Source: Phycisphaerales bacterium
GTDB lineage: Bacteria > Planctomycetota > Phycisphaerae > Phycisphaerales > UBA1924
Assembly: GCA_041750235.1 (NCBI GenBank)
Contig: JBGSZV010000258.1
Location: 1-52,275, forward strand
Direction: 5' to 3'
Length of the DNA: 52,275 nucleotides
Positions 24,535 to 39,959 of this stretch are shown piece by piece. The notes under the pieces are model-generated. The model made no database searches. It was not told the DNA's origin and saw only the letters and a list, made by a program, of their open reading frames with translations. A program made the translations under genes and the position numbers. How positions within the stretch are numbered: the first letter of the stretch is position 1; each line of letters starts with the position of its first letter.

Positions 24535-24537
24535 GCC

Positions 24538-25074
24538 ATGCCCGCCAGTCGCCAGCAAATTCAGGACTTGGCGACCAACTTGCTCGCCGAGTGCGGAGTG
24601 GATCGCCTCCCGGTCCCGGTAGAAGCCATCGCGCGGCGGTGTGGAGCCGTCGTGGTGCAGGTCGACGCCGATGACGAACTATCCGGCTTCTTGATGAGAC
24701 GCCCTGCTGCAGAGGGAAATCTGATCGGTGTCAACCGGGCGCACCACCCCCTTCGCCGGCGCTTCACTGTCGCCCACGAACTTGGGCACATGCTGCTGCA
24801 CACCCAGGAACCCCTGCACGTTGACCGCCAGACCGGGGTCTTCCTTCGGAACCACGTGTCATCCGCAGGCGTGGAGCGGAACGAGACCGAGGCGAACCTC
24901 TTCGCAGCAGAACTCCTCATGCCGAAGGAATGGGTGCTCCAACACTTCGCCCAGCGAAGAGACCCTCAGGTGGTCGAAGATGCCGAACTTCGAGAGTTGG
25001 CCAAGCGGTTCGGCGTGAGCCAGCAGGCGATGACCATTCGCCTCGCCAACCTCGGGGCGATTAGCCTCGGCTGA
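24538..25074 (+). CDS. ImmA/IrrE-family zinc metallopeptidase (CapP-like)
   Basis: HELGHMLLH (HExxH) motif, followed by the conserved E...ANLFAAELLMP segment. Lies 3 nt after the XRE stop. Confidence 0.85.
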   Translation: MPASRQQIQDLATNLLAECGVDRLPVPVEAIARRCGAVVVQVDADDELSGFLMRRPAAEGNLIGVNRAHHPLRRRFTVAHELGHMLLHTQEPLHVDRQTGVFLRNHVSSAGVERNETEANLFAAELLMPKEWVLQHFAQRRDPQVVEDAELRELAKRFGVSQQAMTIRLANLGAISLG

Positions 25075-25204
25075 GGCAATTGGGCCTGTCACCATTCGCT
25101 CGACCGCCAAGCCGCAAGTATTTGACGTTTCTATACTTACGGCGATTGGCAGACACCAAAAGGGTGACACAACCGCCACCGAAATATCCTCGTCCGCCTA
25201 TGAT

Positions 25205-25281
25205 CGTGGGGTCACTTTCCCTCACAAGATACGCACCACATCCCGCCACCGCGGGATGTCGTATCTGCGCGCCAATCGTGC
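25205..25281 (+). repeat. Direct repeat copy R2: duplicated tRNA-Glu 3' end (cgtggggtca), 12-nt spacer, 40-nt hairpin (25227-25266)
   Basis: The 10-mer is identical to tRNA positions 263-272. Hairpin AGATACG..ATCCCGC-cacc-GCGGGAT..CGTATCT. Right flank contains caatcg. Confidence 0.85.
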
Positions 25282-25294
25282 TTGCCGCTCGAGA

Positions 25295-27118
25295 TTAGCC
25301 ACAGCTTGATCCGAACACGCTGAGCATGACCGACAGGTCCGCGCCGTTCACGAATCCGTCGCCGTTGATATCGGCGCCCGAGCCCGGATCAACGGATGAA
25401 CCGAACTGCGACAGCAGCACCGAAAGGTCTGCCCCGTTGATCAACTGATCGCCGTTGACATCGCCGGCGCAGTAGGGAGGAACCACGAGTTCTGCCGTCG
25501 CCATCAGGATCGGCGCTCCACGCCCGGTCCGCGACCACAGATCGTGCAGGACCTCGCCCCAGTTGTCGCTGACGTTGTTGTTCCGCAGCTCCTCGATGTA
25601 GTGCTTCGGCGTGTTCTGGTAGTACACGTTCGCCACCGCGCGCACGGCACCCGCGGGGACCGAGTAATTCACGTCCGCCCAGTACTGCCCGTCGGCATAG
25701 GTCGCCCCCACCACCGGCGCGCCGCCCGCGATGTACCGCGCGTTGTTGAAACCCCTCGGCGGGATGCGGTTGTCCTTGACGATGGTGTCGGCGAGCGACA
25801 TGTGGCCCGTCGGACCCGCGGGAAGTCCGGTCACGCCCGCCGCATAATCGCTCAATCCCACGTGCATCTCAAACACCGTCGTCGATGCTTCATCGAGTTC
25901 CGCGGTCGTATCGTCGTACGCTCCTCGCTCGGCGATCAGCGCATCGGACGCATCAAAGTACTTCACGTTCACCCACACACGCCGCCCTTCGATGTGACCG
26001 GTCGGCAGTTTGTGACCACTCTCGTTCACGACCCGCACCCGCAGGTTCAGTCCCAGTCGCGCCAGCGACAGCGACGCCGCCCGCTGCAGCATGCTCACCG
26101 CCTTGGCACGCCCGGCGGCAATATCCGCCTGATTCACATTCGGATCGTCCTGCGTGTACTCCGCGATCAAGTCCAGCACCTGCGCGGCAGCGCCCGAGAA
26201 ATCGTGCCGCTTGATGTCCGGGCGCGTCGGCCCGAAGAAGCAGCCCTTGCCCTCCACCGTCGGCATGTGGCAGTCCTGACACGTGCTCACCGTCGTCAGA
26301 GAGCCGCCGAACCGCCCATCCATGTTGACCCCGCCGTTCGCAAATGCGCTGAGCTTCCACTCTGTGTACGTACGCTCCAGTGGGAACTGCGCCCAAGGGT
26401 CGGGATTCGGGTTGCTCTCGTCGATCGTGTTGTAGCGGTACGTCCCGTCTGGCTGCTTGGTCGTCGCGACATTTCCCACATCGTGGCACGTGCCGCACAT
26501 GTCGCCGCTTCGCATGAACGCTGAGGCAATCGTGGTGTGACCCGACGACGCATCCGTGTACGGCCCGCGCCGCGTCCCGGACGGGTCAAGCACGAACATC
26601 GCGTTCCCGAAGAACCCCGGGATATCCGCCAATTGGCTCAGAATGGTTTGATCCACCGCGGGGCTGATGCCCGGCTTGTACACGGGATCGACCATGCTGT
26701 GACAGAAGTGGCAGTTCACGCCGTCGCGATCGACCGCGTCCAGTGTGCTGCCGTCGGCCTGGTTCGCATGCCCGGTCACGATGGCCATCGGAACGTGGCA
26801 CCGCAGGCAGTAATACCCGACGTTGTCCACGTCCTGATTGGCGGTGCTCATCTGCGCAAAGAACAGCGGATCGCGCCCCGCCTGGCCCATCAGGCTGCCG
26901 TTCCAGCTGCTGAAGGGTTCGGAGTTCGCGTCGAAGTTGCCGTGGCACATGCTGCAGTTGTTGGACGTGGTGATCGCGCTGGGCGACACGTCCCCTACCT
27001 GCGTGCCGGGAACGTGGAAGTCCTCAAGTGTCATCGGGATGGGCGAGGCAGTTGCGCCCGCGAAAGCCAAGAGCACGGTTCCGGTGCCGCACAGTCGGAC
27101 GAGGGACGCGGATCGCAT
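25295..27118 (-). CDS. Secreted pentaheme c-type cytochrome with a C-terminal dockerin-like repeat pair
   Basis: Five CxxCH sites (CSMCH, CLRCH, CHFCH, CGTCH, CQDCH), an N-terminal signal peptide, and a C-terminus DVNGDQLINGADLSVLLSQFGS / DINGDGFVNGADLSVMLSVFGS. AAGGAG SD. Confidence 0.8.
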   Translation of the reverse strand: MRSASLVRLCGTGTVLLAFAGATASPIPMTLEDFHVPGTQVGDVSPSAITTSNNCSMCHGNFDANSEPFSSWNGSLMGQAGRDPLFFAQMSTANQDVDNVGYYCLRCHVPMAIVTGHANQADGSTLDAVDRDGVNCHFCHSMVDPVYKPGISPAVDQTILSQLADIPGFFGNAMFVLDPSGTRRGPYTDASSGHTTIASAFMRSGDMCGTCHDVGNVATTKQPDGTYRYNTIDESNPNPDPWAQFPLERTYTEWKLSAFANGGVNMDGRFGGSLTTVSTCQDCHMPTVEGKGCFFGPTRPDIKRHDFSGAAAQVLDLIAEYTQDDPNVNQADIAAGRAKAVSMLQRAASLSLARLGLNLRVRVVNESGHKLPTGHIEGRRVWVNVKYFDASDALIAERGAYDDTTAELDEASTTVFEMHVGLSDYAAGVTGLPAGPTGHMSLADTIVKDNRIPPRGFNNARYIAGGAPVVGATYADGQYWADVNYSVPAGAVRAVANVYYQNTPKHYIEELRNNNVSDNWGEVLHDLWSRTGRGAPILMATAELVVPPYCAGDVNGDQLINGADLSVLLSQFGSSVDPGSGADINGDGFVNGADLSVMLSVFGSSCG

Positions 27119-27277
27119 CGGATGACTCCTTCTTGAACTGGACTGTATTTCTGGACCTTTATATCCATTGTTAGCCTACCCAGTATCGGCATGCGGTCAA
27201 GTAAGGTCTTTATTCTTGCCGACCGTTTTAGTGGATATTGACATCCAGTTTTTAAGCCGTAGTCTCAACCCGGAGGC

Positions 27278-29284
27278 GTGGCCCCCGCCATTATGAACCC
27301 TCTCCCACCCGATGTGCACCTGCCCGTCCTGAAGACTCGCCCCGCCAAAGGCCGGATCCCGCGTTGGCGCATCGCGTGCCTTGTCGCGGTCAATCTGCTG
27401 ATTCTCGCCCACATCCTGCACTGGCAGTTCGCGGGCAGGACCATGGCGTCGTGTCAGTTGTCGGACGCGATGCATACCCTCGAGCTCGGCGAGATCAATC
27501 CGGGCTTTGTGCTCCTTGGTCTGGCACTCCTCATCACACTCGTCTTCGGCCGCTTCTTCTGCGGATGGGCATGCCACATGGGAGCGCTGCAGGACGCCTG
27601 CGGCTGGCTGCTGCGCCGGTGCGGCATTCGCCCCGCGCCGCTGCGCTCCCGGCTGCTGGGGTACATCCCCATCCTGCTCGGGGTGTACATGTTCATCTGG
27701 CCATCGCTGAAGCGCGCCGCGCTCCTGCCGCTTCTTGAATCGGTCGCACCCTCCGCTGCTGCCTGGTTCAAGCCTGTCGCGCACGCCGACAACTTCTCGA
27801 TCGCGCTCACGACCAGCGACCTCTGGGAGCGTCTGCCGGGTGCGATCATCGCCGTCCCGTTCCTGCTCATCTGCGGCTGCGCGACTGTCTACTTCCTTGG
27901 AGCACGCGGTCTCTGCCGGTTCGGCTGCCCATACGCCGGACTCTTCAAGCCCGCCGCCGCACTCAGTCCCGGAGGCGTGGTTGTCGATCCGGCGCGATGC
28001 GACGGCTGCGGCCTGTGCACCGCCGCCTGCAGCCAGAACGTCCGCGTGCTGGATGAGACTCGCTTGTACGGCGCCGTCATCGATCCGGCCTGCATCCGTT
28101 CTCTCGATTGCCTGGCGGCCTGCCCGCAGAACGCCCTCTCGCTCCGCTCCGGCCCGCCGGTGATCGTGCGTCGCATCCGCAGCACAGGCCATGCTTCTGA
28201 CACCTCATGCATTCCATGGAAGCACGATGCTCTGCTTCTCGCAGCATTTGCCCTGTCGTTCTTCATCCTCCGCGGGCTCTACTCCACCATCCCGATGCTC
28301 ATGGCCGTCGGAATGGCACTGTGCGTGTCCGGCGTTTGCTGGCAGGCCATCCGGCTTATTCAAGAGCCCAACGTTGCCTTCCGGCGTTTGCAGTTCAAGC
28401 GCGCGGGACGCCTGCGACTCCCAGGACGTGTGCTGGTCGGCGCGCTCCTTGTCACCGTCCTGCTGTTGTCACACTCCGCCGCGATCCGCCTGCTGCTCTG
28501 GCGCGCACGGATCCTGGACGATCAGATCACCGCCACCCGCGATGAAGCGACGCAAGGGTTGGCCTCCGAGCTGGACCGCCAGCGCGCGAGCCGTGCGGAG
28601 AGCCTGTATCGTGCGGCCTCCTCGTGGACTTCGGGTGGCTTCGCGATGTTCGATTCTCCCGAGATCAACTTCCGATGCGCCTGGCTGCAGATGGTGCAGG
28701 GTCACCTCGATCAAGCCCAGGAGACGTTGATGCGCGCGCTCACCGTTCCCGCACAGACCGATGCCGCCGCCGCCGAACTCGCGAGCGTTCGATTTTCACA
28801 AGGCGACATGGACGGCACACTCCGCTTTCTCTTCGACGCTCACGCGAGTGCGGCGCGACCGGCCCCGAGAACATCACGCCTCCTCGCCGGCATGCTGTCC
28901 TCGCTGGGCGACACTGCCGGCGCCGAGCGCGTGCTCTGCTCTTCCGCCGAACGTTGGCCCGAGGACGCTGCCAGTCGTGCTGCGCTCGGCGAGTTCTTCC
29001 TCGCGACCGGTCGAACGGAGCTCGCCCTGCCGGAACTCAAGACCGCTGCCACGCTTCAGCCAAAGAACCCCGCAACCGCGCGACTCTTCGCTTTCGCCCT
29101 GCAACAGCAAGGCCAGCTCGACGCCGCGCTGGCACAGCTTCGGCGTGCGTCACGGCTGGACACACACAACGCAGAGCACGACGCCGCCCTGGGCGCCCAA
29201 TGGCTGGCCGCATCCGGTCGCGCCGAGGAATCAATCGCGTGGAAGAGCTCGGTGCATCGCGCTACCGAGACGTCAGAGCCCTGA
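27278..29284 (+). CDS. NapH/NosH-like polytopic 4Fe-4S membrane protein fused to C-terminal TPR repeats
   Basis: FFCGWACHMGALQ, CRFGCPYAG, CDGCGLCTAACSQNV, CIRSLDCLAACPQNA. Several TM segments. The C-terminal roughly 250 aa is TPR-like. Start is GTG 27278 or ATG 27293. Confidence 0.75.
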   Translation: MAPAIMNPLPPDVHLPVLKTRPAKGRIPRWRIACLVAVNLLILAHILHWQFAGRTMASCQLSDAMHTLELGEINPGFVLLGLALLITLVFGRFFCGWACHMGALQDACGWLLRRCGIRPAPLRSRLLGYIPILLGVYMFIWPSLKRAALLPLLESVAPSAAAWFKPVAHADNFSIALTTSDLWERLPGAIIAVPFLLICGCATVYFLGARGLCRFGCPYAGLFKPAAALSPGGVVVDPARCDGCGLCTAACSQNVRVLDETRLYGAVIDPACIRSLDCLAACPQNALSLRSGPPVIVRRIRSTGHASDTSCIPWKHDALLLAAFALSFFILRGLYSTIPMLMAVGMALCVSGVCWQAIRLIQEPNVAFRRLQFKRAGRLRLPGRVLVGALLVTVLLLSHSAAIRLLLWRARILDDQITATRDEATQGLASELDRQRASRAESLYRAASSWTSGGFAMFDSPEINFRCAWLQMVQGHLDQAQETLMRALTVPAQTDAAAAELASVRFSQGDMDGTLRFLFDAHASAARPAPRTSRLLAGMLSSLGDTAGAERVLCSSAERWPEDAASRAALGEFFLATGRTELALPELKTAATLQPKNPATARLFAFALQQQGQLDAALAQLRRASRLDTHNAEHDAALGAQWLAASGRAEESIAWKSSVHRATETSEP

Positions 29285-29372
29285 GCGGCCCTGCCCACCG
29301 GCTGGACCCTGAAAGTCCGATCACGGGCATCTCAGGCAGTTATCCACCGCCGCGAAACCTCAGGAATCGCTG

Positions 29373-29401
29373 TTGACTCCGACCCTTTGGGTCGATATAA
29401 C
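29373..29401 (+). promoter_or_regulatory. Candidate promoter for the cytochrome c - nosZ operon, with an inverted repeat in the spacer
   Basis: TTGACT - 17 nt - TATAAC. The spacer contains CCGACCC-TTT-GGGTCGA. Confidence 0.35.
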
Positions 29402-29464
29402 TATATACAACTCCAGTTATCTCTCATGCGACAGCGAAGGCTGGGCACTGACGGAGACCAAACA

Positions 29465-30421
29465 ATGCAGCTCGCACCAACCCCACGCCAGGCCGCGACC
29501 CTCCAAGCCGCCGTGCAGTGCGGTTCTACGCCAGCGTCCCGGGGTAGCGGACTCAGGGAATGCGGCATCGCCGCGCTCTGGGCCGTTCTGACAGCGGCCG
29601 TCATCGCCGCTCCCGGCGGGATTTCAATCTTCACTGATCTGCGCAACAAGGAGCGTGCCCGCCTCGCCGCCATCGAAGCCGCGCAGGCCTACGAACGCAT
29701 CGTCGCCGCTCCTGCGGCCGCGAGCCTTCCCCTCGAGCAGGCCGCCCATGGCCGCGATCTGTTCGCGACCACGTGCGTTGCCTGTCACGGCCCGACGGGC
29801 ACCGGTGTCACCGGGCTCGGCAAAAACCTCTGCGAGAGCGACTTCGTCGCCGCCACGAGCGATGCCGATCTCGTGCAGTTCATCATCACGGGCCGCGCCA
29901 CCGCCAACCCGCCCATGCCGCCGCGAGCCGGTCGTCCGGAACTCACCGATGCAGACATCGCAGACCTCGTCATCTACCTTCGCGGCCTGCAGGATGCACG
30001 GCGCATGCCCGAACTGCCGGAAATGGTGGTCGCCAAGGTGGAAGTCACCGCGGACGACAAAGCCAAGGCCCTCGAAGCCGCCGGCGGAGACGAGGAACTC
30101 GCGGGCTGGATCGCCAGCGGCAAGAAGATCTACGCCACGACCTGCATCGCCTGCCATGGACCCGACGGCACCGGTGTCAAGGGCAATGGCAAGCCGCTGA
30201 CGACCAGCGAGTTCGTCGCCTCGCTCAACGACGACGAACTCCTCGCCTTCATCTTGAAGGGTCGTGATCCGAGCGATCCAAAGAACACCACCGGCGTCGG
30301 CATGCCGCCCCGTGGCGGCAACCCAGCGCTCTCTGAGGACGATCTGCTCGACGTCATCTCTTACCTGCGTTCACTTCAGCTGGCCCAGACAGCCAAGCAG
30401 TCATCCGCATCAGCCAACTGA
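29465..30421 (+). CDS. Membrane-anchored diheme class I cytochrome c (NosC-like electron donor)
   Basis: Two CxxCH sites (CVACHGPTGTG, CIACHGPDGTG), each followed by a distal Met context (PPMPPR / GMPPRGG). One N-terminal TM helix. Confidence 0.8.
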   Translation: MQLAPTPRQAATLQAAVQCGSTPASRGSGLRECGIAALWAVLTAAVIAAPGGISIFTDLRNKERARLAAIEAAQAYERIVAAPAAASLPLEQAAHGRDLFATTCVACHGPTGTGVTGLGKNLCESDFVAATSDADLVQFIITGRATANPPMPPRAGRPELTDADIADLVIYLRGLQDARRMPELPEMVVAKVEVTADDKAKALEAAGGDEELAGWIASGKKIYATTCIACHGPDGTGVKGNGKPLTTSEFVASLNDDELLAFILKGRDPSDPKNTTGVGMPPRGGNPALSEDDLLDVISYLRSLQLAQTAKQSSASAN

Positions 30422-30481
30422 CCGTTCATGGCGCCGCGCTGCCGTGTGGAAGCGCCCCGCCCGAACCAAGGAGACCTCACC

Positions 30482-32578
30482 ATGACACGCGCCCCCCGGA
30501 ACAGGGCCGTACTCTCGATGCTCACACTCTCGCTCGCCGCGGGGGCTGTCTTGCAAGCAACGGCGCCCGATGCCATCGCGCAAACGGAAGGCCGACGTCG
30601 TCGAAGCTCGTCTCAGGAAGCAAAGCCCGTCGAGCTCACCGCCGAGCAAGTCGGCATGCTCACCAAGCTCGCCAACGAGCGCAAGCTCAACGTCGATGAC
30701 CTCATGGCCGCCGCCAAGACGTACCTCCCCAGCGGACGCCACGACGAATACGTCCTCTTCTCCTCGGGCGGCCAGAGCGGCCAGATCTTCGCGATCGGCG
30801 TCCCCAGCATGCGCCTCCTGCGCTCGATCGCCGTCTTCACCCCTGAATCCTGGCAGGGCTACGGATTCGCCGGCATGGATGACCCTGTCCTCGAGCAGCT
30901 CAAGATCAATGACAAGCTCGTCGCCTGGGGCGATACCCACCATCCGGCGCTCTCGGAAACCAACGGCGAGTACGACGGCCAGTTCCTCTTCATCGGCGAC
31001 AAGGCCAACGCACGCCTGGGCATCATCGATCTGCGCGACTGGGAAACCAAGCAGATCGTCAAGAACCCGCTCACCATCAGCGACCACGGCGCTGCGTTTG
31101 TGACGCCCAACACTGACTACATCGTCGAGGGCGGCCAGTACGCGACCGTCCTGGGCTACGGCTACGCGCCGCCCGAGGAGTACCAAAAGTCCTACCGCGG
31201 CATGGTCACCCTCTGGAAGTTCGATCGCGCCAAGGGCCGCGTAGACACCGCCAAGTCCTTCGCGATCGAACTCCCGCCCTACTGGCAGGACCTTGCCGAC
31301 GCGGGCAAAAACGCCAGCGACGGCTTCATCTTCATCAACTCCTTCAACACCGAGATGGCTGTTGGCGGCATCGAGAAGGGCAACCCGCCCTTCGAGGCCG
31401 GGGCCAGCAAGCGCGACATGGACTATCTCCACATCATCGACTGGAAGAAGGCCGAGCAGGCCTTCGCCGCCGGCAAAGCCAAGATGATCAACGGCTTCCC
31501 CGTGCTCCCGCTCGAAATCACATCCGCCGAGGGCATTCTCCACTTCACACCCGAGCCCAAGAGCCCGCACGGCGTCGATGTCACCCCCGACGGCAAGTTC
31601 ATGGTCGTCGCCGGCAAGCTCGACCCCCACGTCACCGTTTACTCCATCGACAAGATCAAGTCAGCCATCGCCGAGAAGAAGTTCAGTGGTACGGACGCCT
31701 ACGGCGTTCATATCCTGGATTTCGACTCGGTCCGCGAAGCACAGGTCGAACTCGGCCTTGGCCCGCTGCACACCCAGTTCGATGACAAGGGCTACGCATA
31801 CACATCGCTCTTCCTTGACTCTGCCGTTGCACGCTGGAGCTTGGGCGGTGACTACGCCAAACTCCACAGCGAGCAGCCGTGGAAGCTCGTGCACAAGACG
31901 CCCGTTCAGTACAACATCGGCCACCTCTGCGCCGCCGAAGGCGATACCACCACCCCAGACGGTCGCTTCCTGATCTCGATGTCCAAGTGGTCGGTCGACC
32001 GTTTCCTCAACACCGGCCCCCTGCTCCCGCAGAACTTCCAGCTCCTCGACATCGCCGCGCCGGGAACCACCATGCCGGTGATCTACGACCTCCCCATCGG
32101 CGTCGGCGAGCCCCACTACTGCCAGATGATCAAGGCCGACAAACTCAAGACCTGGAACGTCTACCCCGAGGTCGGCTGGAACCCGCACACGCAGATGCTC
32201 GATCCACGCTCGCCCAAGAAGGGACAAGAAGGCGTGGTGCGCGACGGCAACAAGGTCACCGTCAACATGACCGCCATCCGCAGCCACTTCAATCCTGAGC
32301 ACGTCGAGGTCAACCAGGGCGATGAGGTCACATGGCGCATCGTGGCCATGGAGACCACACCCGACGCCACCCACGGCTTCTGCATCGGCGCGTACAACAT
32401 CAACCTCTCCCTGGAGCCCGGCGAGTTCACCGAGTTCAAGTTCATCGCAGACGAGCCCGGAACCTATCCCTTCTACTGCACCGAATTCTGCTCCGCGCTG
32501 CACCTTGAAATGATGGGCTATCTGCACATCAAGCCGACGGCCGCGCAGTCGTCCGCTTCCAATCCCTCAGACAACTGA
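30482..32578 (+). CDS. nosZ: Nitrous-oxide reductase NosZ, Sec-type (clade II) signal peptide
   Basis: Beta-propeller body (HGVDVTPDGKFMVVAGKLDPHVTVY) and CuA motif FYCTEFCSALHLEMMGY. The signal peptide MTRAPRNRAVLSML lacks a twin-Arg motif. AAGGAG SD. Confidence 0.93.
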   Translation: MTRAPRNRAVLSMLTLSLAAGAVLQATAPDAIAQTEGRRRRSSSQEAKPVELTAEQVGMLTKLANERKLNVDDLMAAAKTYLPSGRHDEYVLFSSGGQSGQIFAIGVPSMRLLRSIAVFTPESWQGYGFAGMDDPVLEQLKINDKLVAWGDTHHPALSETNGEYDGQFLFIGDKANARLGIIDLRDWETKQIVKNPLTISDHGAAFVTPNTDYIVEGGQYATVLGYGYAPPEEYQKSYRGMVTLWKFDRAKGRVDTAKSFAIELPPYWQDLADAGKNASDGFIFINSFNTEMAVGGIEKGNPPFEAGASKRDMDYLHIIDWKKAEQAFAAGKAKMINGFPVLPLEITSAEGILHFTPEPKSPHGVDVTPDGKFMVVAGKLDPHVTVYSIDKIKSAIAEKKFSGTDAYGVHILDFDSVREAQVELGLGPLHTQFDDKGYAYTSLFLDSAVARWSLGGDYAKLHSEQPWKLVHKTPVQYNIGHLCAAEGDTTTPDGRFLISMSKWSVDRFLNTGPLLPQNFQLLDIAAPGTTMPVIYDLPIGVGEPHYCQMIKADKLKTWNVYPEVGWNPHTQMLDPRSPKKGQEGVVRDGNKVTVNMTAIRSHFNPEHVEVNQGDEVTWRIVAMETTPDATHGFCIGAYNINLSLEPGEFTEFKFIADEPGTYPFYCTEFCSALHLEMMGYLHIKPTAAQSSASNPSDN

Positions 32579-32664
32579 CACCGCAGCGTCCGCGCCGAGC
32601 GAAAGCCCCGCGCGGGCATTGATCCGCACATTCAGGTCGCAACAACGGTGCAAGGAAACCACCC

Positions 32665-33339
32665 ATGTCCCGCATCGCAAACTATCTCATCGGCCCGCGA
32701 ATTCCTCTGGAAGAACTCCAGGCTCATCGCTGGCGATACCTCACACCCACGTTCATCCTCATGCTCGCGCGTGTCCTCCTGCTCCTTTCAATTTTCCTTC
32801 CCTACTGGCACATGGAGCTCGAAGCTCCGCAGTACCCCAACGGCCTGTTTCTCACCGCGTACGTCAATCACCTGCAGGGCGATGTCAAGGAGATCGACGG
32901 CCTCAACCACTACATCGGCATGCGTCCGCTCGAACAGGCCGCCGCGTTCGAGCGGGCCGCTTCGGTGTGGCTGATCGTCGCCATGTTCCTTCTCGTTGAA
33001 GGCGCGGCATTCATTCACAGCAAGTGGGCCGTGCTCCTCGCACTTCCCGCCGTCGGCTTCCCCGCCGGCTTCCTCGTGGACCTCCACTTCTGGATGAAGA
33101 CCTTTGGCCAGAACCTCGACCCCTCGGCGCCGCTGTCGGCGTCCGTCAAGCCGTTTATCCCAACCGTACTCGGCGAGGGAGGCATCGGACAGTTCAAGAC
33201 CTACGCGGACCTCGGATGGGGCTACTGGCTTGCCGTGGGCTGTGCCGTCCTGACCATCATCGGCTTTGTCTTCCACCGTCGCGCGTATCGCCCGCTCTAC
33301 CTCAGGACTCTCCGCGAATCGGCCGCCGGTGTCGCATGA
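32665..33339 (+). CDS. NosB-like integral membrane protein (clade II nos accessory)
   Basis: Multi-TM protein located directly between nosZ and nosD. ATGA coupling to nosD. Confidence 0.6.
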   Translation: MSRIANYLIGPRIPLEELQAHRWRYLTPTFILMLARVLLLLSIFLPYWHMELEAPQYPNGLFLTAYVNHLQGDVKEIDGLNHYIGMRPLEQAAAFERAASVWLIVAMFLLVEGAAFIHSKWAVLLALPAVGFPAGFLVDLHFWMKTFGQNLDPSAPLSASVKPFIPTVLGEGGIGQFKTYADLGWGYWLAVGCAVLTIIGFVFHRRAYRPLYLRTLRESAAGVA

Positions 33340-34772
33340 ACACGCGAAACTTCCCCATTCACTGCTTTTCGCTTCTGCTCGCGCTGGCAGGTTCCAACCC
33401 TGTGCTCGCCCAGGAGCACGCCGCGCCCACCTCCATCGCGCCGCGTCCAGCATCACTGCCACTCGGCCAGATCGGGCGCCGCATCGAAGCCGCGCCGGAG
33501 GGATCCATCATCACCGTCGAACCCGGCATCTACCGTGAGCACCTTCGAATCACAAAGCCAATCACCCTTCGCGCACGTCCCGGCGCGGTGATCGACGGCG
33601 ACGGAAGCGGCGACATCATCGAAATCACCGCGCCGGATGTCATCATCGACGGCTTCACCATCCGCAATACCGGCATTGACCTCGACCAGGAGAACGCCGC
33701 CATCCGCGCGCTCGCCCCGCGGGTCACCATCGAGAACAACACCCTCGAAGACATCCTCTTTGGCATCGACCTCCGCGAAGCACCCGGCAGTGTCATCCGC
33801 GGAAATCGCATCGGAGGCAAGAACCTCGATTCAGCACGCCGCGGTGACGGCCTCCGCCTCTGGCGCTCCGACGACACCATCGTCGAGTCCAACACCATCC
33901 ACGACGGACGCGACGCCATCCTCTGGTACTCCAAGGGTGTGACTGTCCGCAACAATACCGTCCATGACAGCCGCTACGGCCTGCACCTCATGTACAGCGA
34001 CGATGTGCGGATCGAGGGCAACCGGCTGACCGCCAACTCCGTAGGCGTGTACCTCATGTACAGCGCGGGCGTGGAACTCCGCCACAACATCCTCATCCGC
34101 AACCGCGGGCCCAGCGGCTACGGGATCGGCCTCAAGGAAACGGACCGATTCACTGTCTCGGACAACCTCATCTCCGGCAACCGCGTCGGCATCTACATCG
34201 ATGGCTCGCCCTTCACTGACAAGCAGCCCGGACTCTTCAGGGGCAACACCCTCGCCTTCAACGACATCGGCATCACCTTCCTCCCGTCGGCCAAAGGCAA
34301 CCTCCTCGCAGGCAACAACTTTGTAGACAACATCGATCAGATCAGCGTCGCGGGACGCGGCAATCTCGATGCGAATCAGTTCTGGGATGGCGAGCGCGGG
34401 AACTTCTGGAGCGACTACACCGGGTACGACCTCAACGGTGATGGCGTCGGCGACTTCGTTCACGAATCCCAGACGCTCTTCGAGAACCTGCTCGACCGCG
34501 AACCCCGCCTTCGTCTGTTCCTCTTCAGCCCCGCGCAGCAAGCGATCGAGTTCGTCGGACGCGCCGTTCCCGCGATCCGCCCAGAGCCCAAGTTCACGGA
34601 CGAGGTCCCTCTCATGCACCCCGTCCCGATCGACATACCGGGCGTCGCTCAAGGCCGTCGATCCTGGTCCATGCTCGGCGCGAGTGCGGCGCTCCTTGTT
34701 CTCGGAGCCTTGATCACATGCATCGGACGCGGCCCAGCCTTCTGCAAGTCACGCAACGGAGCCACTCCATGA
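33336..34772 (+). CDS. nosD: NosD, periplasmic parallel beta-helix copper-processing protein
   Basis: Signal peptide, then repeated beta-helix units (IENNTLEDILFGIDL, VRNNTVHDSRYGLHLMYS, IEGNRLTANSVGVYLMYS, ISGNRVGIYID). Confidence 0.88.
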   Translation: MNTRNFPIHCFSLLLALAGSNPVLAQEHAAPTSIAPRPASLPLGQIGRRIEAAPEGSIITVEPGIYREHLRITKPITLRARPGAVIDGDGSGDIIEITAPDVIIDGFTIRNTGIDLDQENAAIRALAPRVTIENNTLEDILFGIDLREAPGSVIRGNRIGGKNLDSARRGDGLRLWRSDDTIVESNTIHDGRDAILWYSKGVTVRNNTVHDSRYGLHLMYSDDVRIEGNRLTANSVGVYLMYSAGVELRHNILIRNRGPSGYGIGLKETDRFTVSDNLISGNRVGIYIDGSPFTDKQPGLFRGNTLAFNDIGITFLPSAKGNLLAGNNFVDNIDQISVAGRGNLDANQFWDGERGNFWSDYTGYDLNGDGVGDFVHESQTLFENLLDREPRLRLFLFSPAQQAIEFVGRAVPAIRPEPKFTDEVPLMHPVPIDIPGVAQGRRSWSMLGASAALLVLGALITCIGRGPAFCKSRNGATP

Positions 34773-35668
34773 TCCAGATCCACCAGGTCACGCGGAAGTT
34801 CGGTCGGGCCCGTGCCGTGGACAACCTCTCGCTCGACATCCCCGCCGGCGCCAGCGTCGCGCTCTGGGGCGCCAATGGCGCCGGAAAGACCACGCTCATT
34901 CGCTGCGTCCTTGGCCTGCTCCGATTCAAGGGACGCATCACTGTTGGCGGGCACGACGTGACGCGTCACGGCAAGGCCGCGCGCATGCTCATCGGCTATG
35001 TGCCCCAGGAACTCGGCTTCTACGACGACCTCCGCGCCGCCGAGTCGCTCCGATTCTTTGGACGACTCAAGGGACTGAACACACATTCGTCCAGTGAGTC
35101 GCTCGCCCGGGTCGGCTTGGAGGGGCAGGACCACAAGCGGATCCGCGAACTCTCGGGCGGCATGAAGCAGCGCCTCGCGCTCGCCATCGCCATGCAGGGG
35201 GATCCGCCCGTGCTCGTGCTCGACGAAGTCACCGCCAGCCTCGACGCCTGCGGCCGCGCGGAGTTCATCCGGCTCCTCTCCAGGCTCTCGAACGACGGCC
35301 GCACGATGCTCTTTGCGTCCCATCGCATCGAAGAAGTCAGCACGCTCGCGTCACGCGTCATCCTCTTTGAGAAAGGACGCATCCAAGACCAGTGCGCCTC
35401 CCACGAACTTGCCGATCGCATCGGCTCCTCCTCGATTCTGCACCTGGTCCTCCAGCCGCCGGTGCGCGAACTTGCCATGACCGCACTCCGCACCGGCGGC
35501 TTCTCCCCGCGGATGAACGGCGTGGGGATCGTCGTCCCCGTACCCGCCGAGCAGAAGGCCGCACCCTTCCGGCTCCTCGCCGAAGCACGGATCACCATCG
35601 ACGACTTCGAGCTCATGGCCGCCGGGGCTGAACACACCAGCCACCCTCGCATGGAGGCCGCCCAATGA
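34769..35668 (+). CDS. nosF: NosF, ABC transporter ATPase
   Basis: Walker A GANGAGKTT, signature LSGGMKQRL, Walker B VLVLDE. ATGA overlaps on both sides. Confidence 0.88.
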   Translation: MIQIHQVTRKFGRARAVDNLSLDIPAGASVALWGANGAGKTTLIRCVLGLLRFKGRITVGGHDVTRHGKAARMLIGYVPQELGFYDDLRAAESLRFFGRLKGLNTHSSSESLARVGLEGQDHKRIRELSGGMKQRLALAIAMQGDPPVLVLDEVTASLDACGRAEFIRLLSRLSNDGRTMLFASHRIEEVSTLASRVILFEKGRIQDQCASHELADRIGSSSILHLVLQPPVRELAMTALRTGGFSPRMNGVGIVVPVPAEQKAAPFRLLAEARITIDDFELMAAGAEHTSHPRMEAAQ

Positions 35669-36540
35669 CCGCGCTCTCAACGACGCTTGTGACTCATGCA
35701 CGCCCGCCCTCGGCGATCCGCAACATTCGAACCATCGCCGGCCGCGAGCTTCGCGAGAGCCTCCGCAGCCGCTGGTTCATCCTCTACACAATCGCATTCG
35801 CGGTGCTAGGTCTGGGCATTTCATTCGTCTCCGCAGCCGGCGCGGGCGGGCTCGGGCTCTCAGGCTACGGCCGCACAACCGCCGGTCTCATCAATCTGGT
35901 GCTCCTGGTCGTGCCGCTCATGGCGCTCACCGCCGGCGCAGGCTCCATCGCCTCCGATCGCGAGCGGGGCATGCTCCCCTATCTCCTCGCCCAGCCGCTC
36001 GCCCGCTTCGAACTCCTGCTCGGCAAGTATCTGGGACTCGCCGCGGCGCTGGCCGCCTGTCTGTCCCTCGGCCTTGGCGCGTGCGCCGGCATCCTCGCAT
36101 GGAAGGGCGGCGGCTCGCAGCCCGCCGCGATGCTCTGGCTCGCCGGTCTTTCACTCTTGCTCGCGCTGGGCATGCTCAGTGTGGGAATGCTCATCTCAAC
36201 GCTCGCTCGCCGAGCGTCCATGGCCATCGGAGTCGCCATCTTCCTCTGGCTCGCGCTGGTCTTCGTGAGTGATCTTGCCCTCATGGCCGGCGCGATCGCA
36301 ATGCGGTTCCGCATCGAAGAACTCTTCGCCCTCAGCCTCGTCAATCCGCTTCAGGTCTTCAAGATGTGGTCGCTCCACGCGGTGGACGCGACCCTCGACG
36401 TCCTCGGACCCGCCGGTCTGTACGCCATGGACGAGTACGCCGACCGGCTCCACCTCATCTTCGGCGCCTGCCTCGCGGTGTGGATCTTCCTCCCGCTCGC
36501 GCTCGCCGTCGTCGTCTTCTCTCGGAGGTCGCCGTTATGA
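35665..36540 (+). CDS. nosY: NosY, ABC-2 type permease
   Basis: Six predicted TM segments, positioned between nosF and nosL. Confidence 0.85.
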   Translation: MTALSTTLVTHARPPSAIRNIRTIAGRELRESLRSRWFILYTIAFAVLGLGISFVSAAGAGGLGLSGYGRTTAGLINLVLLVVPLMALTAGAGSIASDRERGMLPYLLAQPLARFELLLGKYLGLAAALAACLSLGLGACAGILAWKGGGSQPAAMLWLAGLSLLLALGMLSVGMLISTLARRASMAIGVAIFLWLALVFVSDLALMAGAIAMRFRIEELFALSLVNPLQVFKMWSLHAVDATLDVLGPAGLYAMDEYADRLHLIFGACLAVWIFLPLALAVVVFSRRSPL

Positions 36541-37061
36541 ACCGCCGATCCCTACTCCGGCTGTCCGCCGTCGCTCTTTGCTTGCTTCCAACACTGCTCC
36601 TGGCCGGCGGCTGCGACCGCGCCGAACTCAACGGCCCGCCCGATCTTCGCGTCGGGCGCGACGAGTGCGGTGAATGCGGCATGATCATCAACGAGGACCG
36701 CTGCTCCTGTGCCTTTCTCATCGAGCGCGAGGGCGTTCGCGAACACGTCATGTTCGACGACATTGGTTGCCTGCTCGACTTCGAGCACCAGTCCAACGAG
36801 GGAGTGCGAATCATCGACGGCTTCGTCCGTGATCACGCCTCCCGCGCCTGGGTTCCGGTCGATACCGCCGCCTTCCTGATGGCCGACCGCGAGATCCTCA
36901 AGACGCCGATGGGCTCGGGGATCGTCGCCTTCGGCACGCGCGCGGACGCCCAATCGCTGCGAGCGAGCGTCGGCGGCGAGATCCTCGACTACCAGCAACT
37001 CCGACCGGCACGCCGCGCTTGGATGGAAGCCCGCTTCGGCAAGGAACGTCCAGCATCGTGA
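36537..37061 (+). CDS. nosL: NosL, copper-chaperone lipoprotein
   Basis: Lipobox LLAGGC, CGECGM motif, and a MGSGIVAF segment typical of NosL. Confidence 0.8.
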   Translation: MNRRSLLRLSAVALCLLPTLLLAGGCDRAELNGPPDLRVGRDECGECGMIINEDRCSCAFLIEREGVREHVMFDDIGCLLDFEHQSNEGVRIIDGFVRDHASRAWVPVDTAAFLMADREILKTPMGSGIVAFGTRADAQSLRASVGGEILDYQQLRPARRAWMEARFGKERPAS

Positions 37062-37089
37062 TGCGATGATGCAGCACCGGAGGTGAAAC

Positions 37090-37569
37090 ATGCTCTCCCA
37101 GACAGTCGAGTACGCACTGCGGGCCATGATCTACCTCGCTTCTTTCGGCGATTCGGCCGTCAACTGCGAAACCCTCTCCGGTCAGACACGCGTCCCCGCC
37201 GGCTATCTCTCCAAGGTCATGCGCGATCTGGTCTGCGCCAACCTCGTTCGCTCCTACCGCGGGCCGCACGGCGGATTCACAATCGCTCGCCATCCGGACA
37301 CCATCTCTCTTCTTGACGTGGTGAACGCCGTGGACCCAATCCACCGTATCGGGAGCTGCCCCCTCGACAACCCCCTCCATTCAACGCTCTGTCCCTTGCA
37401 CAAGCGCCTCGACGACGCCATCGAGCACGTCGAACGCACGTTCCGTGAAACCTCTCTCGGCTCCGTGCTCTCCGGCCCCGGCGGCACGGGCGCCTGCAAA
37501 GCCCTCTTTCCCTCCCGCCCAACCGCACGACCGAACGCAGGAGAGCCCAGCAATGACAACCACCATTGA
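37090..37569 (+). CDS. Rrf2-family transcriptional regulator (paralog 1)
   Basis: MLSQTVEYALRAMIYLA...GYLSKVMRDL winged HTH. Cys cluster SCPLDNPLHSTLCPLH. Confidence 0.85.
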   Translation: MLSQTVEYALRAMIYLASFGDSAVNCETLSGQTRVPAGYLSKVMRDLVCANLVRSYRGPHGGFTIARHPDTISLLDVVNAVDPIHRIGSCPLDNPLHSTLCPLHKRLDDAIEHVERTFRETSLGSVLSGPGGTGACKALFPSRPTARPNAGEPSNDNHH

Positions 37570-38293
37570 TCCAACCGTCACACTGGCCGACCTGACCGCT
37601 TGCCATCCCGAGCTCATTCCGCTCTTGCAGCGCCTTCGTCTTGATTACTGTTGCGGCGGCGCTCAGCCGCTTGAATCAGCCTGCCTCCGACGTGGGCTGG
37701 TATTCAGCGACGTATGCAACCAGCTCCATCTCGCGATGAACCCGCGCGAACAGCCGGCCCTCCGCAACTGGCAGGACGCCTCAATGACCGCACTGGCCGA
37801 TCACATCGAGGCCACGCATCACGCCTTCGTACGAACGAGCATGGAGTCTCTCAAGGCGCTGGCTGAGAAGGTCGCTGCGGCCCACGCCGAGAATCATCCG
37901 GAACTGAAGGAACTCCGCGGGCTCATCGCCCTGCTTGATGCCGACATGCACGATCACATGATCCGCGAGGAGCGCGTGCTCTTCCCCTGGCTCCGTCGGC
38001 TTGAGCGTCCAACCGAGATCACCAGCGGCCCGCCGTGGAGCGTCAAACGACCCATCGACTGCATGGTCCACGACCACGACGATGTCGCCGACCTGCTCCG
38101 TCAGATCCGCGGCCTGACCCATGACTTCACGCCGCCCCCTGACGCCTGCGGCGCCTTCCGCGCCCTCCTGTCACTCCTTGCCAACTTCGAAGCCGACACC
38201 CACACTCACATCCACCTCGAGAACAACATCCTCTTCCCCGCCGGCTTGCGTGCCGAGCAGGACCAACAGCAAGGGAAGGGCAACGCGCAATAA
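37553..38293 (+). CDS. Repair-of-iron-centres di-iron protein (RIC; ScdA/YtfE family)
   Basis: ScdA_N motif (LRLDYCCGG) plus hemerythrin-like His/Glu motifs (HHAFV, HMIREERVLFPW, HDHDD, HIHLENNILFP). The internal ATG at 37553 has an AGGAG SD. Confidence 0.85.
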   Translation: MTTTIDPTVTLADLTACHPELIPLLQRLRLDYCCGGAQPLESACLRRGLVFSDVCNQLHLAMNPREQPALRNWQDASMTALADHIEATHHAFVRTSMESLKALAEKVAAAHAENHPELKELRGLIALLDADMHDHMIREERVLFPWLRRLERPTEITSGPPWSVKRPIDCMVHDHDDVADLLRQIRGLTHDFTPPPDACGAFRALLSLLANFEADTHTHIHLENNILFPAGLRAEQDQQQGKGNAQ

Positions 38294-38367
38294 CCACCGT
38301 CCCCTGGTTTGCCGGACATCCGGATACACTTCTCCCGTTCTACCACCGCCTCCCCCGGAAACCGGAC

Positions 38368-38823
38368 ATGCTCTCACAGACCGTCGAATACGCGCTGCGC
38401 GCCATGGTCCATCTCGCCACCCTGGAGCCCGGCGGCACCGCCAACAGTGAAACCATCTCCCAGCGAACCCAAGTCCCTCAGGGCTACCTCTCCAAGGTTC
38501 TGCGCGATCTCGTCGTCGCCGGGCTGATCAGGTCGCAACGCGGGCCCAACGGCGGCTTCGCACTTGACATCGAACCCTCTCGCATCTCGATGCTCGACGT
38601 CGTCAATGCCGTGGATCCCTTCAAACGCATTCACTCCTGCCCCCTCGGCAACCCGGCACACGTGAAGCTCTGTCCACTGCACCAGCGAATCGACGATGCC
38701 CTCGACCTCATCGAGAAGCAGTTCGGACGCACGATGCTCTCAGAAGTGATCGAAACAAAGGCCCGCACTGGCGGTCAGTGCAGTTCACTCCTCAGCCCGA
38801 CCATCCGAGGCCGGAAGCACTGA
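38368..38823 (+). CDS. Rrf2-family transcriptional regulator (paralog 2)
   Basis: MLSQTVEYALRAMVHLA...GYLSKVLRDL. Cys cluster SCPLGNPAHVKLCPLH. Confidence 0.85.
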   Translation: MLSQTVEYALRAMVHLATLEPGGTANSETISQRTQVPQGYLSKVLRDLVVAGLIRSQRGPNGGFALDIEPSRISMLDVVNAVDPFKRIHSCPLGNPAHVKLCPLHQRIDDALDLIEKQFGRTMLSEVIETKARTGGQCSSLLSPTIRGRKH

Positions 38824-38985
38824 ACCACAGAATGCGCCATTGGCTCGGGACCTTTGCGATGCGTTTGGGAGCTGCCAGTCACTCCACAGCCATGTGACTC
38901 AGGCTGGTTGACACACCCCGGGGCCCCTGGAAGTAGCCGACACGCCGGCGCCCAAGTCTCGGCGTCCGACGACGAGCCCGGGCTC

Positions 38986-39059
38986 ATCGTGCCTTGAACA
39001 AAGTACGCCCTTATCCCCCGGCACGAGGGGGACGTCGTACTTATGGGCTCAGCAACCGG
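38986..39059 (+). repeat. Direct repeat copy R3 (most diverged): atcgtg..ccttga remnant, 42-nt hairpin (39001-39042), conserved right flank
   Basis: Hairpin AAGTACG..TCCCCC-ggcacga-GGGGGA..CGTACTT. The right flank atgggctcagcaaccgg matches R1 gtggaatcagcaatcgg at 13 of 17 positions. Confidence 0.75.
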
Positions 39060-39211
39060 ACAACACCGCACACCCACCTGACGCCATTGCGGCGCAGATG
39101 AACCCAACTTCAGCGTCAGATCACTCAGTATCCACATCGCTCCGACACACTGCACAGGACTTCATCGCGTGCTTTACAAACTGCACGGCACAGCCTTTGA
39201 GACAGGAGTCC

Positions 39212-39466
39212 ATGCACATGATCTCAATCGACCGCCTCTTCACCGCCGCCGATGCACTCCTCGACGCGGTGCACTCCGAAGGGAACAGCGCGACCATGGA
39301 TATGCTTGTCGAGGAACCGCCCGAAGGAGAGCAGATCCCCGATGGAGTCTTCACCGCAATTGAGCTTACCGAGGCGCTCAATATGCTCTACCGACTCGGA
39401 CTCGTCGATGACCGGACCTTGGGCGTCACCGAGACAGACCAGGACGAACTCACCGACTGGGCGTGA
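39212..39466 (+). CDS. Small acidic hypothetical protein
   Basis: CAGGAG SD before ATG 39212. No recognisable motif. Confidence 0.3.
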   Translation: MHMISIDRLFTAADALLDAVHSEGNSATMDMLVEEPPEGEQIPDGVFTAIELTEALNMLYRLGLVDDRTLGVTETDQDELTDWA

Positions 39467-39475
39467 TGCAGCGCC

Positions 39476-39943: not shown

Positions 39944-39959
39944 CGATCGTTCCTTCCAA

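Follow-up and report, generated by a model that had tools for sequence, protein, structure and literature searches.

Gene content of the nos module

The window, meaning the whole stretch of 52,275 nt that we analysed, lies on contig JBGSZV010000258.1 of a Phycisphaerales (Planctomycetota) genome (GCA_041750235.1). Between two repeats designated R2 and R3 it holds 12 genes, which were identified by profile and motif searches and agree with the gene content described in an earlier note on this DNA.

25295-27118, minus strand: pentahaem c-type cytochrome (cyt5), five CxxCH motifs and a C-terminal dockerin domain
27278-29284, plus strand: NapH/NosH-like polyferredoxin membrane protein, Fer4_5/4Fe-4S, weak NapH match, C-terminal TPR
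29387-30421, plus strand: dihaem cytochrome c, NosC-like (cyt2), two CxxCH motifs
30428-32578, plus strand: nosZ, Sec-dependent (clade II) N2O reductase, TIGR04246, CuA motif
32665-33339, plus strand: nosB-like membrane protein of 224 aa immediately after nosZ, about four hydrophobic segments
About 33336-34772, plus strand: nosD, Pfam NosD, with TIGR04247 among the nosDFYL profile matches
34718-35668, plus strand: nosF, Pfam ABC_tran
35665-36540, plus strand: nosY, Pfam ABC2_membrane_2
36537-37061, plus strand: nosL, Pfam NosL
37090-37569, plus strand: first Rrf2, Pfam/NCBIfam searches
37550-38293, plus strand: RIC/YtfE-type di-iron repair protein, TIGR03652
38368-38823, plus strand: second Rrf2 (Rrf2b), Pfam/NCBIfam searches

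NosZ scored 815 bits against the Sec-dependent model TIGR04246 (cutoff 625) and 393 bits against the TAT-type model TIGR04244, which is below the cutoff of 625. The protein encoded after nosZ matched no Pfam or NCBIfam profile; its position and predicted topology suggest that it is nosB-like, and it is conserved after nosZ in relatives (53-81%). The maturation genes nosD, nosF, nosY and nosL are all present, and domain and profile searches returned no NosR- or NosX-type match among the 12 genes. These results support the earlier description of a complete clade II nos module. They also agree that the module lacks a recombinase of its own, as no recombinase or integrase domain was found in any of the 12 genes. 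The dihaem cytochrome c gene is kept immediately 5' of nosZ in 53 relatives. Cyt5 belongs to a family with more than 2000 homologues and probably forms a quinol-to-NosZ electron route together with the NapH-like/TPR protein.

Three related repeats and a serine-recombinase island at tRNA-Glu

As the earlier note had also read it, a recombinase-bearing island at tRNA-Glu directly precedes the nos module. The features of this region, the three repeats and the chromosomal block that follows the module are listed below.

198-272, plus strand: tRNA-Glu(CTC), the integration target (ARAGORN)
263-357, plus strand: R1, attL of island 1; core CGTGGGGTCA (263-272), trailer, two-tier hairpin (287-327) and about 30 nt distal to it
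273-25204: island 1, a 24.9-kb serine-recombinase integrative island (Pfam, NCBIfam, PADLOC)
407-2395, minus strand: large serine recombinase (LSR) adjoining tRNA-Glu(CTC); PF00239 Resolvase, PF07508 Recombinase, PF13408 zinc ribbon
2758-4176, minus strand: MTase, island 1
6457-18014: two-component and phosphorelay genes, island 1
19068-22004: CHAT, island 1
22065-22913, minus strand: ThiF/E1-like, island 1
24103-24534: CapH-like HTH, island 1
24538-25074: CapP/M78, island 1
25170-25268, plus strand: R2, attR of island 1; P arm (about 25170-25204), core CGTGGGGTCA (25205-25214), native tRNA-Glu trailer and hairpin (25227-25266)
38945-39070, plus strand: R3, relic att-like site; P-arm-like stretch (38945-38976), degenerate core CCCGGGCTCA (38977-38986), trailer, hairpin (39001-39042) and R1-like distal stretch
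39098-52275: downstream chromosomal block; g39218, lipoprotein g39476, DUF1328, DUF892, DUF883, HK/RR, PRC-barrel/MamS_MamX, sigma factor, Ser/Thr kinase

Island 1 carries its three-domain LSR at one end and attachment sites at both, and the same target is reused in other genomes. In another genus (L172), the tRNA-Glu(CTC) locus is orthologous, with a shared upstream gene, and bears an element of this family in the same layout of tRNA, hairpin and convergent serine recombinase; the nos cluster of that genome lies on a different contig from the element. The distance from a related recombinase to tRNA-Glu(CTC) is 80 nt in L091 and about 2.7 kb in L089. The recombinase search of genome contigs returned three loci only. 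L089 was considered as a model for the island boundary and rejected because its recombinase is 2.7 kb away and its trailer equals those of L084 and L135, which have no recombinase nearby.

Alignment showed a significant relationship among R1, R2 and R3, each of which copies the 3' end of tRNA-Glu with its trailer and hairpin, so the proposal that tRNA-Glu-derived repeats bracket the nos module held up. R1 (263-357) aligned with R2 (25205-25268) at z = 16.9. R1 and R3 (approximately 38977-39070) are the most similar pair (z = 21.4), with about 78% identity over a 92-nt alignment that includes some 30 nt past the hairpin. The earlier note had allowed that R3 might prove unrelated to R1 and R2 on statistical alignment; its relation to R1 is strong, and direct similarity of R2 to R3 is weak (z = 2.6). 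The last 10 nt of the tRNA (CGTGGGGTCA) recur as an exact copy in R2, and the R3 core (CCCGGGCTCA) is a degenerate version that matches at 7 of 10 positions.

All three repeats share one two-tier hairpin fold, and the outer stem in R3 contains two compensatory pairs (AGATACG/CGTATCT versus AAGTACG/CGTACTT). The left half of R3 resembles the island P arm (p approximately 0.001-0.006), unlike the tRNA T-arm (p = 0.44). Its right half matches only the right half of R1 (z = 19.7), to which it is nearer than R2 is. No U-tract was found at R3. Upstream of R2 and of R3, nothing significantly matched the 5' part of the tRNA (p = 0.49 and 0.81, respectively), and we therefore rejected the idea that R3 is a decayed full tRNA-Glu pseudogene. 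Within the window, the repeats and the hairpin had no matches besides R1, R2 and R3. The hairpin was likewise absent from 1.5 Mb of relatives' nos loci and from the intergenic regions of the sister contigs described below, which argues against a dispersed repeat, and a metagenome scan for the R1/R3 hairpin pattern gave no matches. Native tRNA-Glu trailers elsewhere have the same hairpin type in L138 and possibly in L172. R3 is present in the strain contigs L146 and L148 and was not found in L156, L149 or L153.

R2 is the right attachment site (attR) of island 1, because conservation between the window and a sister contig, L167, drops at the 10-nt core. A crossover at the centre of the hairpin is disfavoured, as conservation falls right after CGTGGGGTCA. 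The direct repeats that flank the R2-R3 module are thus both derived from the target site, yet island 1 accounts for R2.

The nos locus in the sister species and across the family

The sister species is represented by two short contigs from one metagenome sample, L167 and L156, which probably derive from a single genome. L167 carries, in order, CapP/M78 (96% amino acid identity), an R2 homologue sharing the P arm and core, cyt5 (80%), NapH-TPR (52%), cyt2 (66%) and the start of nosZ. L156 carries the end of RIC, Rrf2b (74%), a 38-aa ORF, g39218 and g39476. No R-like sequence was found in L156 between Rrf2b and g39218, where the 38-aa ORF occupies the spot; this ORF also occurs in L149 and L153. 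Taken together, the two contigs indicate that nos keeps its neighbours on both sides in the sister species, without R3.

The downstream block is syntenic with L149 (a sister lineage) from window position 39098 onward, and this gene group stays together in distant relatives. In L149, the neighbour of the g39218 block is a kdp operon. Neither a tRNA-Glu abutting this block nor any other clean empty site was found in any genome compared. A g39476 profile recovered from the genome contigs only relatives of at most 55% identity, with neither nos nor tRNA-Glu nearby, and one distant locus in a metagenome scan.

The R2-R3 module showed no presence/absence variation in L146, L148 and the sister species, a set of few short contigs. 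The comparison of close relatives at tRNA-Glu that the earlier note had suggested therefore gave a divided answer: the arrangement is unchanged in these genomes, and the context of nos differs across the family. Vertical conservation at this position likewise holds for one sister lineage (L167/L156) and not for the family as a whole. As a separate observation, nosD-F-Y may have undergone allele replacement between near-identical strains. This is possibly the sole hint of gene flow and, if real, may point to homologous recombination rather than site-specific mobility.

We compared the divergence of the module with that of its surroundings using the excess identity at fourfold sites. Between the window and the sister species, this measure was 0.63 for M78, 0.15 for cyt5, 0.01 for NapH, 0.21 for cyt2, 0.08 for the NosZ N-terminus, -0.04 for Rrf2b, 0.04 for g39218 and -0.01 for g39476; core genes gave 0.04-0.24 against L149. 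Fourfold sites and intergenic DNA are saturated between the two species. The nos genes are therefore as diverged as the flanking chromosome, near saturation, and the end of the island is much younger. Island 1 thus has a history distinct from its flanks (0.63 versus at most 0.24 for chromosomal genes).

Composition gave a similar picture. The plus-strand GC3 skew is -0.01 in island 1, -0.30 in nos and -0.28 downstream in either gene orientation; cyt5, unlike the minus-strand genes further downstream, has a skew near 0. Set against the core genome, as the earlier note had proposed, the module thus resembles the downstream chromosome and not island 1. In relatives, the skew of nos ranges from -0.53 to +0.33 and follows the local flanks (r = 0.70, n = 51), which indicates that it was acquired in place.

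About 60 other Phycisphaerales species possess the cyt2-nosZBDFYL-Rrf2 core, with NosZ identities of 70-84%, and the NosZ of the window is roughly equidistant from its relatives (mean 77.5%, maximum 82.5%). The DNA within 10 kb of nos at 80 loci of relatives contained no tRNA-Glu, no copy of the 10-nt core, no M78 and no related recombinase. Some tRNA of varied identity lies near nos in 16 of the 80, close to chance by a back-of-envelope estimate, and tRNA enrichment was rejected on that basis. The flanks of nos are shared within small subgroups only, inside which NosZ identity is only partly above background; flank synteny neither proves nor refutes mobility at such deep distances. The context of nos differs in all other genera, which means that the cluster moved, or that genomes rearranged, over longer timescales. 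Nos adjoins tRNA-Glu in this lineage only; in other genera, the usual native neighbour downstream of this tRNA is a CheY-like regulator.

Origin of the arrangement and comparison with known systems

We consider it probable that nos is an old chromosomal resident next to a serine-recombinase island hotspot and not a mobile satellite island. In this model, a clade II N2O-respiration cluster with the core cyt c-nosZBDFYL-Rrf2/RIC would sit in the chromosome and, in this genus, directly downstream of tRNA-Glu(CTC), which would serve as a repeated integration target for the LSR island family. Island 1 would have integrated by a crossover within the final 10 nt of the tRNA or immediately beside them. 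At R1, the resulting attL would comprise the tRNA followed by copies of the trailer and terminator hairpin that the island brought in, beside the recombinase gene. At R2, the attR would join the island P arm and 10-nt core to the native trailer and a hairpin that probably also ends the convergent cytochrome gene. The third, decayed att-like copy, R3, with its P-arm-like left half, would have arisen in this lineage once nos was in place, replacing the conserved 38-aa ORF between Rrf2b and g39218. The best reading is that the island family left it behind as an att relic in this lineage alone, most likely the scar of earlier activity. Because the sister species has nos without R3 and nos is as diverged as the chromosome, the bracket would be a by-product of island traffic at this tRNA and would not mark the ends of a nos island.

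Some observations run against a resident nos. R3 is built as an attR on the far side of nos should be, and a tRNA-derived repeat that lies 13.7 kb from the tRNA is most simply explained if the intervening DNA integrated there. The missing empty site, the cyt5 skew near 0 and the varied context of nos between genera point the same way. Nos could instead have entered the genus ancestor as cargo of an older tRNA-Glu island, with the right half of R2 as its left (P') arm and R3 as its attR, the recombinase having been lost and the composition ameliorated. This would explain the build of R3 (P-arm-like left half, degenerate tRNA core, trailer), the proximity of nos to tRNA-Glu in this lineage only, and a cyt5 convergent to the att site where family members have the recombinase. 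However, the sister species has the 38-aa ORF in place of R3 between the same neighbours. R3 also remains 78% identical to R1 despite saturation at fourfold and intergenic sites, and an older scar should have decayed. Moreover, a tandem-array model predicts the opposite of the closeness of R3 to the right half of R1. Ancient integration of nos is thus considerably less probable than residence. In a slightly less probable extended form, the ancient serine-recombinase island seeded N2O respiration here, R3 stayed recognisable as attR because its hairpin is functional, and low-frequency recombination by the resident recombinase may persist. If true, this would show by what concrete means nos could pass between members of the Phycisphaerales.

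It is improbable that R3 came about independently of any integrative element, as a duplicate of the tRNA-Glu trailer and terminator hairpin that ectopic recombination, for instance, placed behind the Rrf2b operon to serve as its terminator. The compensatory changes that keep the hairpin, and the native trailers of the same type, agree with such an origin, but a left half that resembles the P arm and not the tRNA does not, and neither does the missing U-tract.

The earlier note took the bracket to define a satellite-type island or a fixed remnant. A remnant has the standing given above; an active satellite, excised and integrated in trans by the island 1 recombinase with or without island 1, is very unlikely. 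Att-like sequences in direct orientation do flank the module, and a recombinase of the cognate family adjoins it. However, R2 belongs to island 1 and barely resembles R3, whose core is degenerate; no presence/absence variation was seen; silent-site divergence and strand skew match the chromosome; and att fragments or a related recombinase accompany nos in none of the 80 relatives. Had nos sat on a mobilisable island, this would have offered a mechanism to explain why clade II nosZ is distributed so patchily and how N2O-sink capacity spreads. A composite 38.7-kb island from R1 to R3, with nos as cargo and R2 as an internal relic, is just as unlikely: R1 and R3 are the most similar pair, but the divergence measure differs between adjacent segments (0.63 for M78 versus 0-0.2 for nos), as does strand skew, conservation shifts at the R2 core, and the family members in L172 and L091 lack nos.

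Collectively, nos in this Phycisphaerales family looks long-resident and largely vertically inherited, which fits the low horizontal transfer stated for nosZ (PMC11409646) and its phylogenetic clustering in the SM1A02 family (PMC11266412). In practical terms, att-like repeats beside a tRNA hotspot can flank genes that belong to the chromosome, and such a bracket does not by itself make them an island.

Clade II nos clusters of Bacteroidota, Gemmatimonadota, Anaeromyxobacter and Wolinella share with this module a TIGR04246 NosZ preceded by a c-type cytochrome and followed by nosB, the genes nosDFYL, a nearby NapH/NosH-like ferredoxin protein and the absence of nosR and nosX; a sec signal and nosB mark the clade (PMC11409646). 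Unlike in those clusters, the NapH-like protein here has a C-terminal TPR domain, a dockerin-bearing pentahaem cytochrome takes the place of NosG/C1/C2, and two Rrf2 regulators and a RIC protein come with the cluster; about 7 of 80 relatives, and no more, have the cyt5/NapH-TPR pair near nos. The clade II-type nos cluster of Methylacidiphilum caldifontis IT6 was placed in a genomic island and attributed to horizontal transfer on the basis of an IslandViewer prediction and NosZ phylogeny (PMC11102522), whereas the comparative and compositional tests here argue against recent transfer.

As in tandem tRNA-targeting islands, classically those with tyrosine integrases, tRNA 3'-end repeats mark the boundaries, the island brings a substitute tRNA end and trailer, and one tRNA is followed downstream by several att copies. 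In contrast, the enzyme here is a large serine recombinase, and the segment between the second and third repeats, which holds nos, behaves as resident chromosome. Like SCCmec (CcrAB) and the fdxN element (XisF), island 1 is a cargo-bearing element with an LSR at one of its ends, and it occupies the 3' end of a conserved gene. Its LSR has weak NCBIfam similarity to CcrB, CcrC and XisF, with all scores far below the family cutoffs. Unlike those elements, island 1 targets a tRNA gene and carries signalling and defence-like genes.

Gene content around tRNA-Glu(CTC)

The window derives from a Phycisphaerales (Planctomycetota) genome and has a G+C content of 63%. Its main features, from the tRNA gene to the last of three related repeats (R1 to R3; tRNA-Glu 3' end, trailer and hairpin), are as follows.

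198-272: tRNA-Glu(CTC)
263-357: repeat R1
Island 1 (273-25204), start: large serine recombinase of 662 aa, convergent on tRNA-Glu(CTC) and 135 nt from it, with Resolvase, Recombinase and zinc-ribbon domains
Island 1, behind the recombinase: N6/N4 methyltransferase
Island 1, behind the recombinase: large set of two-component and phosphorelay genes
Island 1: CHAT protein and ThiF/E1-like protein
Island 1, ending at 25074: CapH-like HTH and CapP/M78 peptidase pair
25205-25268: repeat R2
25295-27118: pentahaem cytochrome (cyt5), first gene of the nos module, with five CxxCH motifs and a C-terminal type I dockerin domain
nos module: NapH-like 4Fe-4S membrane protein with TPR repeats
nos module: dihaem cytochrome c (cyt2)
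nos module: nosZ, Sec-type (TIGR04246, 815 bits against a cutoff of 625)
nos module: nosB-like membrane protein
nos module: nosD, nosF, nosY and nosL
nos module, end: Rrf2, RIC and a second Rrf2 (Rrf2b)
38977-39070: repeat R3

Domain and profile matches agree with the gene list that the earlier note gave for the stretch between R2 and R3, from the pentahaem cytochrome to Rrf2-RIC-Rrf2. All genes of the nos module (25295-38823) were annotated and no recombinase was found among them, as the note had claimed; its recombinase-bearing island at the tRNA, adjoining nos, was likewise recovered.

Several observations concern individual genes. The right end of island 1 (19068-25074) resembles a defence module, with a CHAT protease-like protein, a ThiF/E1-like protein (weak PADLOC E1-E2 matches), a CapH-like HTH protein (1e-9) and a CapP metallopeptidase (7e-35). 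The cyt5 family is very large (2276 homologues at E<1e-50, mostly in Phycisphaerae) and usually does not adjoin nos. The longest direct repeats of the window (families D1, D2 and D6; 70-85% identity; 37088-37433 and 38366-38714) are the paralogous Rrf2 genes on either side of RIC. Downstream, 39218-46300 holds a stress-type group (DUF1328, DUF892/YciE-like, DUF883, an entericidin-like peptide, PRC-barrel/MamS_MamX and an OmpR-type two-component pair) that is kept together in distant Phycisphaerales; its response regulator is 97% identical to the counterpart in sister lineage L149.

The recombinase island family and the three repeats

Other Phycisphaerales also have related serine recombinases at tRNA-Glu(CTC) or close by. 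In L091 the distance is 80 nt, with the same small gene and methyltransferase following as in the window; in L089 it is 2.7 kb. At L172, a tRNA-Glu locus orthologous to that of the window with the same gene upstream, the layout is also alike (tRNA, hairpin, convergent recombinase, then methyltransferase and CHAT protein), and the nos cluster of that genome is on a separate 400-kb contig. Large serine recombinase islands of one family target the 3' end of tRNA-Glu(CTC) (window 198-2395; L172 10001-12325; L091; L089) and bring a tRNA end and trailer hairpin of their own. The recombinase family is large in Planctomycetota, with 754 homologues at E<1e-80. tRNA targets are classically linked to tyrosine integrases. 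In many Phycisphaerales (L081-L145), a CheY-like single-domain response regulator follows tRNA-Glu(CTC) at a distance of about 560 nt and is probably its ancestral downstream neighbour; no counterpart was found in the window after R2 or R3.

The kinship of the three repeats, also claimed earlier, was assessed from local alignment scores against dinucleotide shuffles. R1 and R2 scored 16.9 sd above the shuffles, and R1 and R3 scored 21.4 sd, with a 92-nt alignment of about 78% identity. Both strands of the window were scanned and no further match was found. The last 10 nt of the tRNA recur exactly in R2 and at 7 of 10 positions in R3, and the 5' part of the tRNA was found at neither. All three repeats share one two-tier hairpin fold (-22 to -24 kcal/mol), in which two outer-stem pairs are altered on both sides in R3. 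This hairpin is of the type that trails tRNA-Glu in other genera (L138, L085/L172), and in L085/L172 a serine recombinase lies just past it.

Divergence of the nos module and its flanks

The best NosZ matches come from about 60 Phycisphaerales MAGs (70-84% identity), and a core of cyt2-nosZ-B-D-F-Y-L-Rrf2 occurs in about 60 species. The NosZ of the window is about equidistant from all relatives (mean 77.5%, maximum 82.5%; family-wide mean 76.6%), and these identities do not point to a recent donor. Of 80 nos loci of relatives, none has a tRNA-Glu within 10 kb, the 10-nt core from the tRNA 3' end, or a related recombinase or M78. Flanks outside the nos module are mostly unique, with synteny common to small subgroups only, so gene context gives no verdict at deep distances.

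Comparing the composition of the module with its surroundings, as the earlier note had proposed, went against a recently imported block. Plus-strand GC3 skew is -0.01 in island 1, -0.30 in the nos module and -0.28 in the downstream block, where it holds for genes in both orientations. By this measure the nos module sides with the downstream chromosome, except for cyt5 with its skew near 0, and island 1 stands apart. Across the nos clusters of 51 relatives the skew ranges from -0.53 to +0.33 and tracks the local flanks (r=0.70), indicating that it was gained in place and is not intrinsic to nos genes. This strong, orientation-independent negative skew (about -0.3) covers the nos module and everything downstream of it in the window (25000-52275), with an abrupt stop at the island 1 boundary.

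The key comparison was with L167, a contig of a sister species reached via the closest cyt5 homologue (80%). Its order is CapP/M78 (96% aa), an R2 homologue, cyt5 (80%), NapH-TPR (52%), cyt2 (66%) and the start of nosZ; CapP is thus 96% identical where its neighbours are only 52-80% identical. Silent sites were compared as well.

Excess identity at fourfold-degenerate sites of conserved residues, corrected for base composition
M78 (island 1), window vs sister species: 0.63
cyt5, window vs sister species: 0.15
NapH-TPR, window vs sister species: 0.01
cyt2, window vs sister species: 0.21
NosZ N-terminus, window vs sister species: 0.08
Rrf2b, window vs sister species: -0.04
g39218 (gene after R3), window vs sister species: 0.04
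g39476 (gene after R3), window vs sister species: -0.01
Downstream core genes, window vs L149: 0.04-0.24 (0.24 for the 97%-identical response regulator)

These values indicate that nos diverged together with the chromosome and that the island end has a far more recent common ancestor.

Across R2, the window and L167 share about 85% identity as far as CGTGGGGTCA on the island side, falling to about 60% past it. Conservation thus drops at the 10-nt core or close to it, where we place the crossover. On this placement, the distal half of R2 is the native tRNA trailer, and nos already stood directly behind tRNA-Glu when island 1 came.

The right junction is seen in L156, from the same sample as L167, which reads RIC end, Rrf2b (74% aa), 209 nt, a 38-aa ORF, g39218 and g39476. 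This small hydrophobic ORF is conserved (MNKLVRGGIAGFAAWKWGGGL...YLLGYL) upstream of the g39218 orthologue in three sister lineages (L149 10967-11083; L153 1742-1858; L156 876-992), adjoining g39218 in L149 and L153 too; in L149 its upstream neighbour is a kdp operon. No R-like sequence was found in these intergenic regions of L156, L149 and L153. In the window the ORF is missing and R3 stands in its place, with synteny to L149 picking up again at 39098, just beyond R3. R3 is present in the near-identical strain contigs L146 and L148. We infer that L156 and L167 belong to one genome, in which case nos would have the same neighbours on both sides in the two species, and R3 would be specific to the lineage of the window. 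The block that the earlier note wanted sought in close relatives would thus be there, without R3.

L148 (ENA ERZ25039597 contig_44854) is 96-100% identical to the window over nosL-DUF1328 and 33341-33590, and 70-89% identical (mostly 80-87%), with many indels, across nosD-nosF-nosY (33590-36340). Either homologous recombination has replaced alleles within the nos cluster, or the assembly is chimeric or noisy.

Origin of the nos module and of R3

Taken together, we favor a reading in which the clade II nos cluster is resident and was inherited vertically, next to a hotspot for serine-recombinase islands, and in which R2 is the attR of the island and R3 a later relic; we regard this as reasonably likely. 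The anatomy behind the satellite-type island of the earlier note stands. Its interpretation is not supported, as nos diverged with the chromosome, and R1 and R2 both belong to island 1.

A fixed remnant, in which an ancient integration brought nos, is a doubtful though possible alternative. The form of R3 speaks for it, as does the adjacency of nos to tRNA-Glu in the lineage of the window only. The age of R3 bears on it directly: intergenic DNA of the window and the sister species is unalignable, and R3 is still 78% identical to R1, extending about 30 nt beyond the hairpin. R3 therefore postdates the split of the two species and, by the same token, the arrival of nos at this position. An active satellite is very unlikely.

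As for R3 itself, its left 42 nt match the P arm of L167 (the island-side stretch left of the core; 69% ungapped, p about 0.001) and that of the window (p about 0.006), with no resemblance to the tRNA T-arm (p=0.44). Its right half is similar only to the right half of R1 (z=19.7). The two halves together identify R3 as an att-type sequence of the island 1 family, which, judged from its sequence, would be either an attR or an attP-like hybrid. Its position between Rrf2b and g39218 may go back to a secondary-site integration and a later deletion, or to an earlier element that decayed.

A predicted genomic island that holds nos is already on record (PMC11102522), and even reading the present module as an island would thus add no new category.
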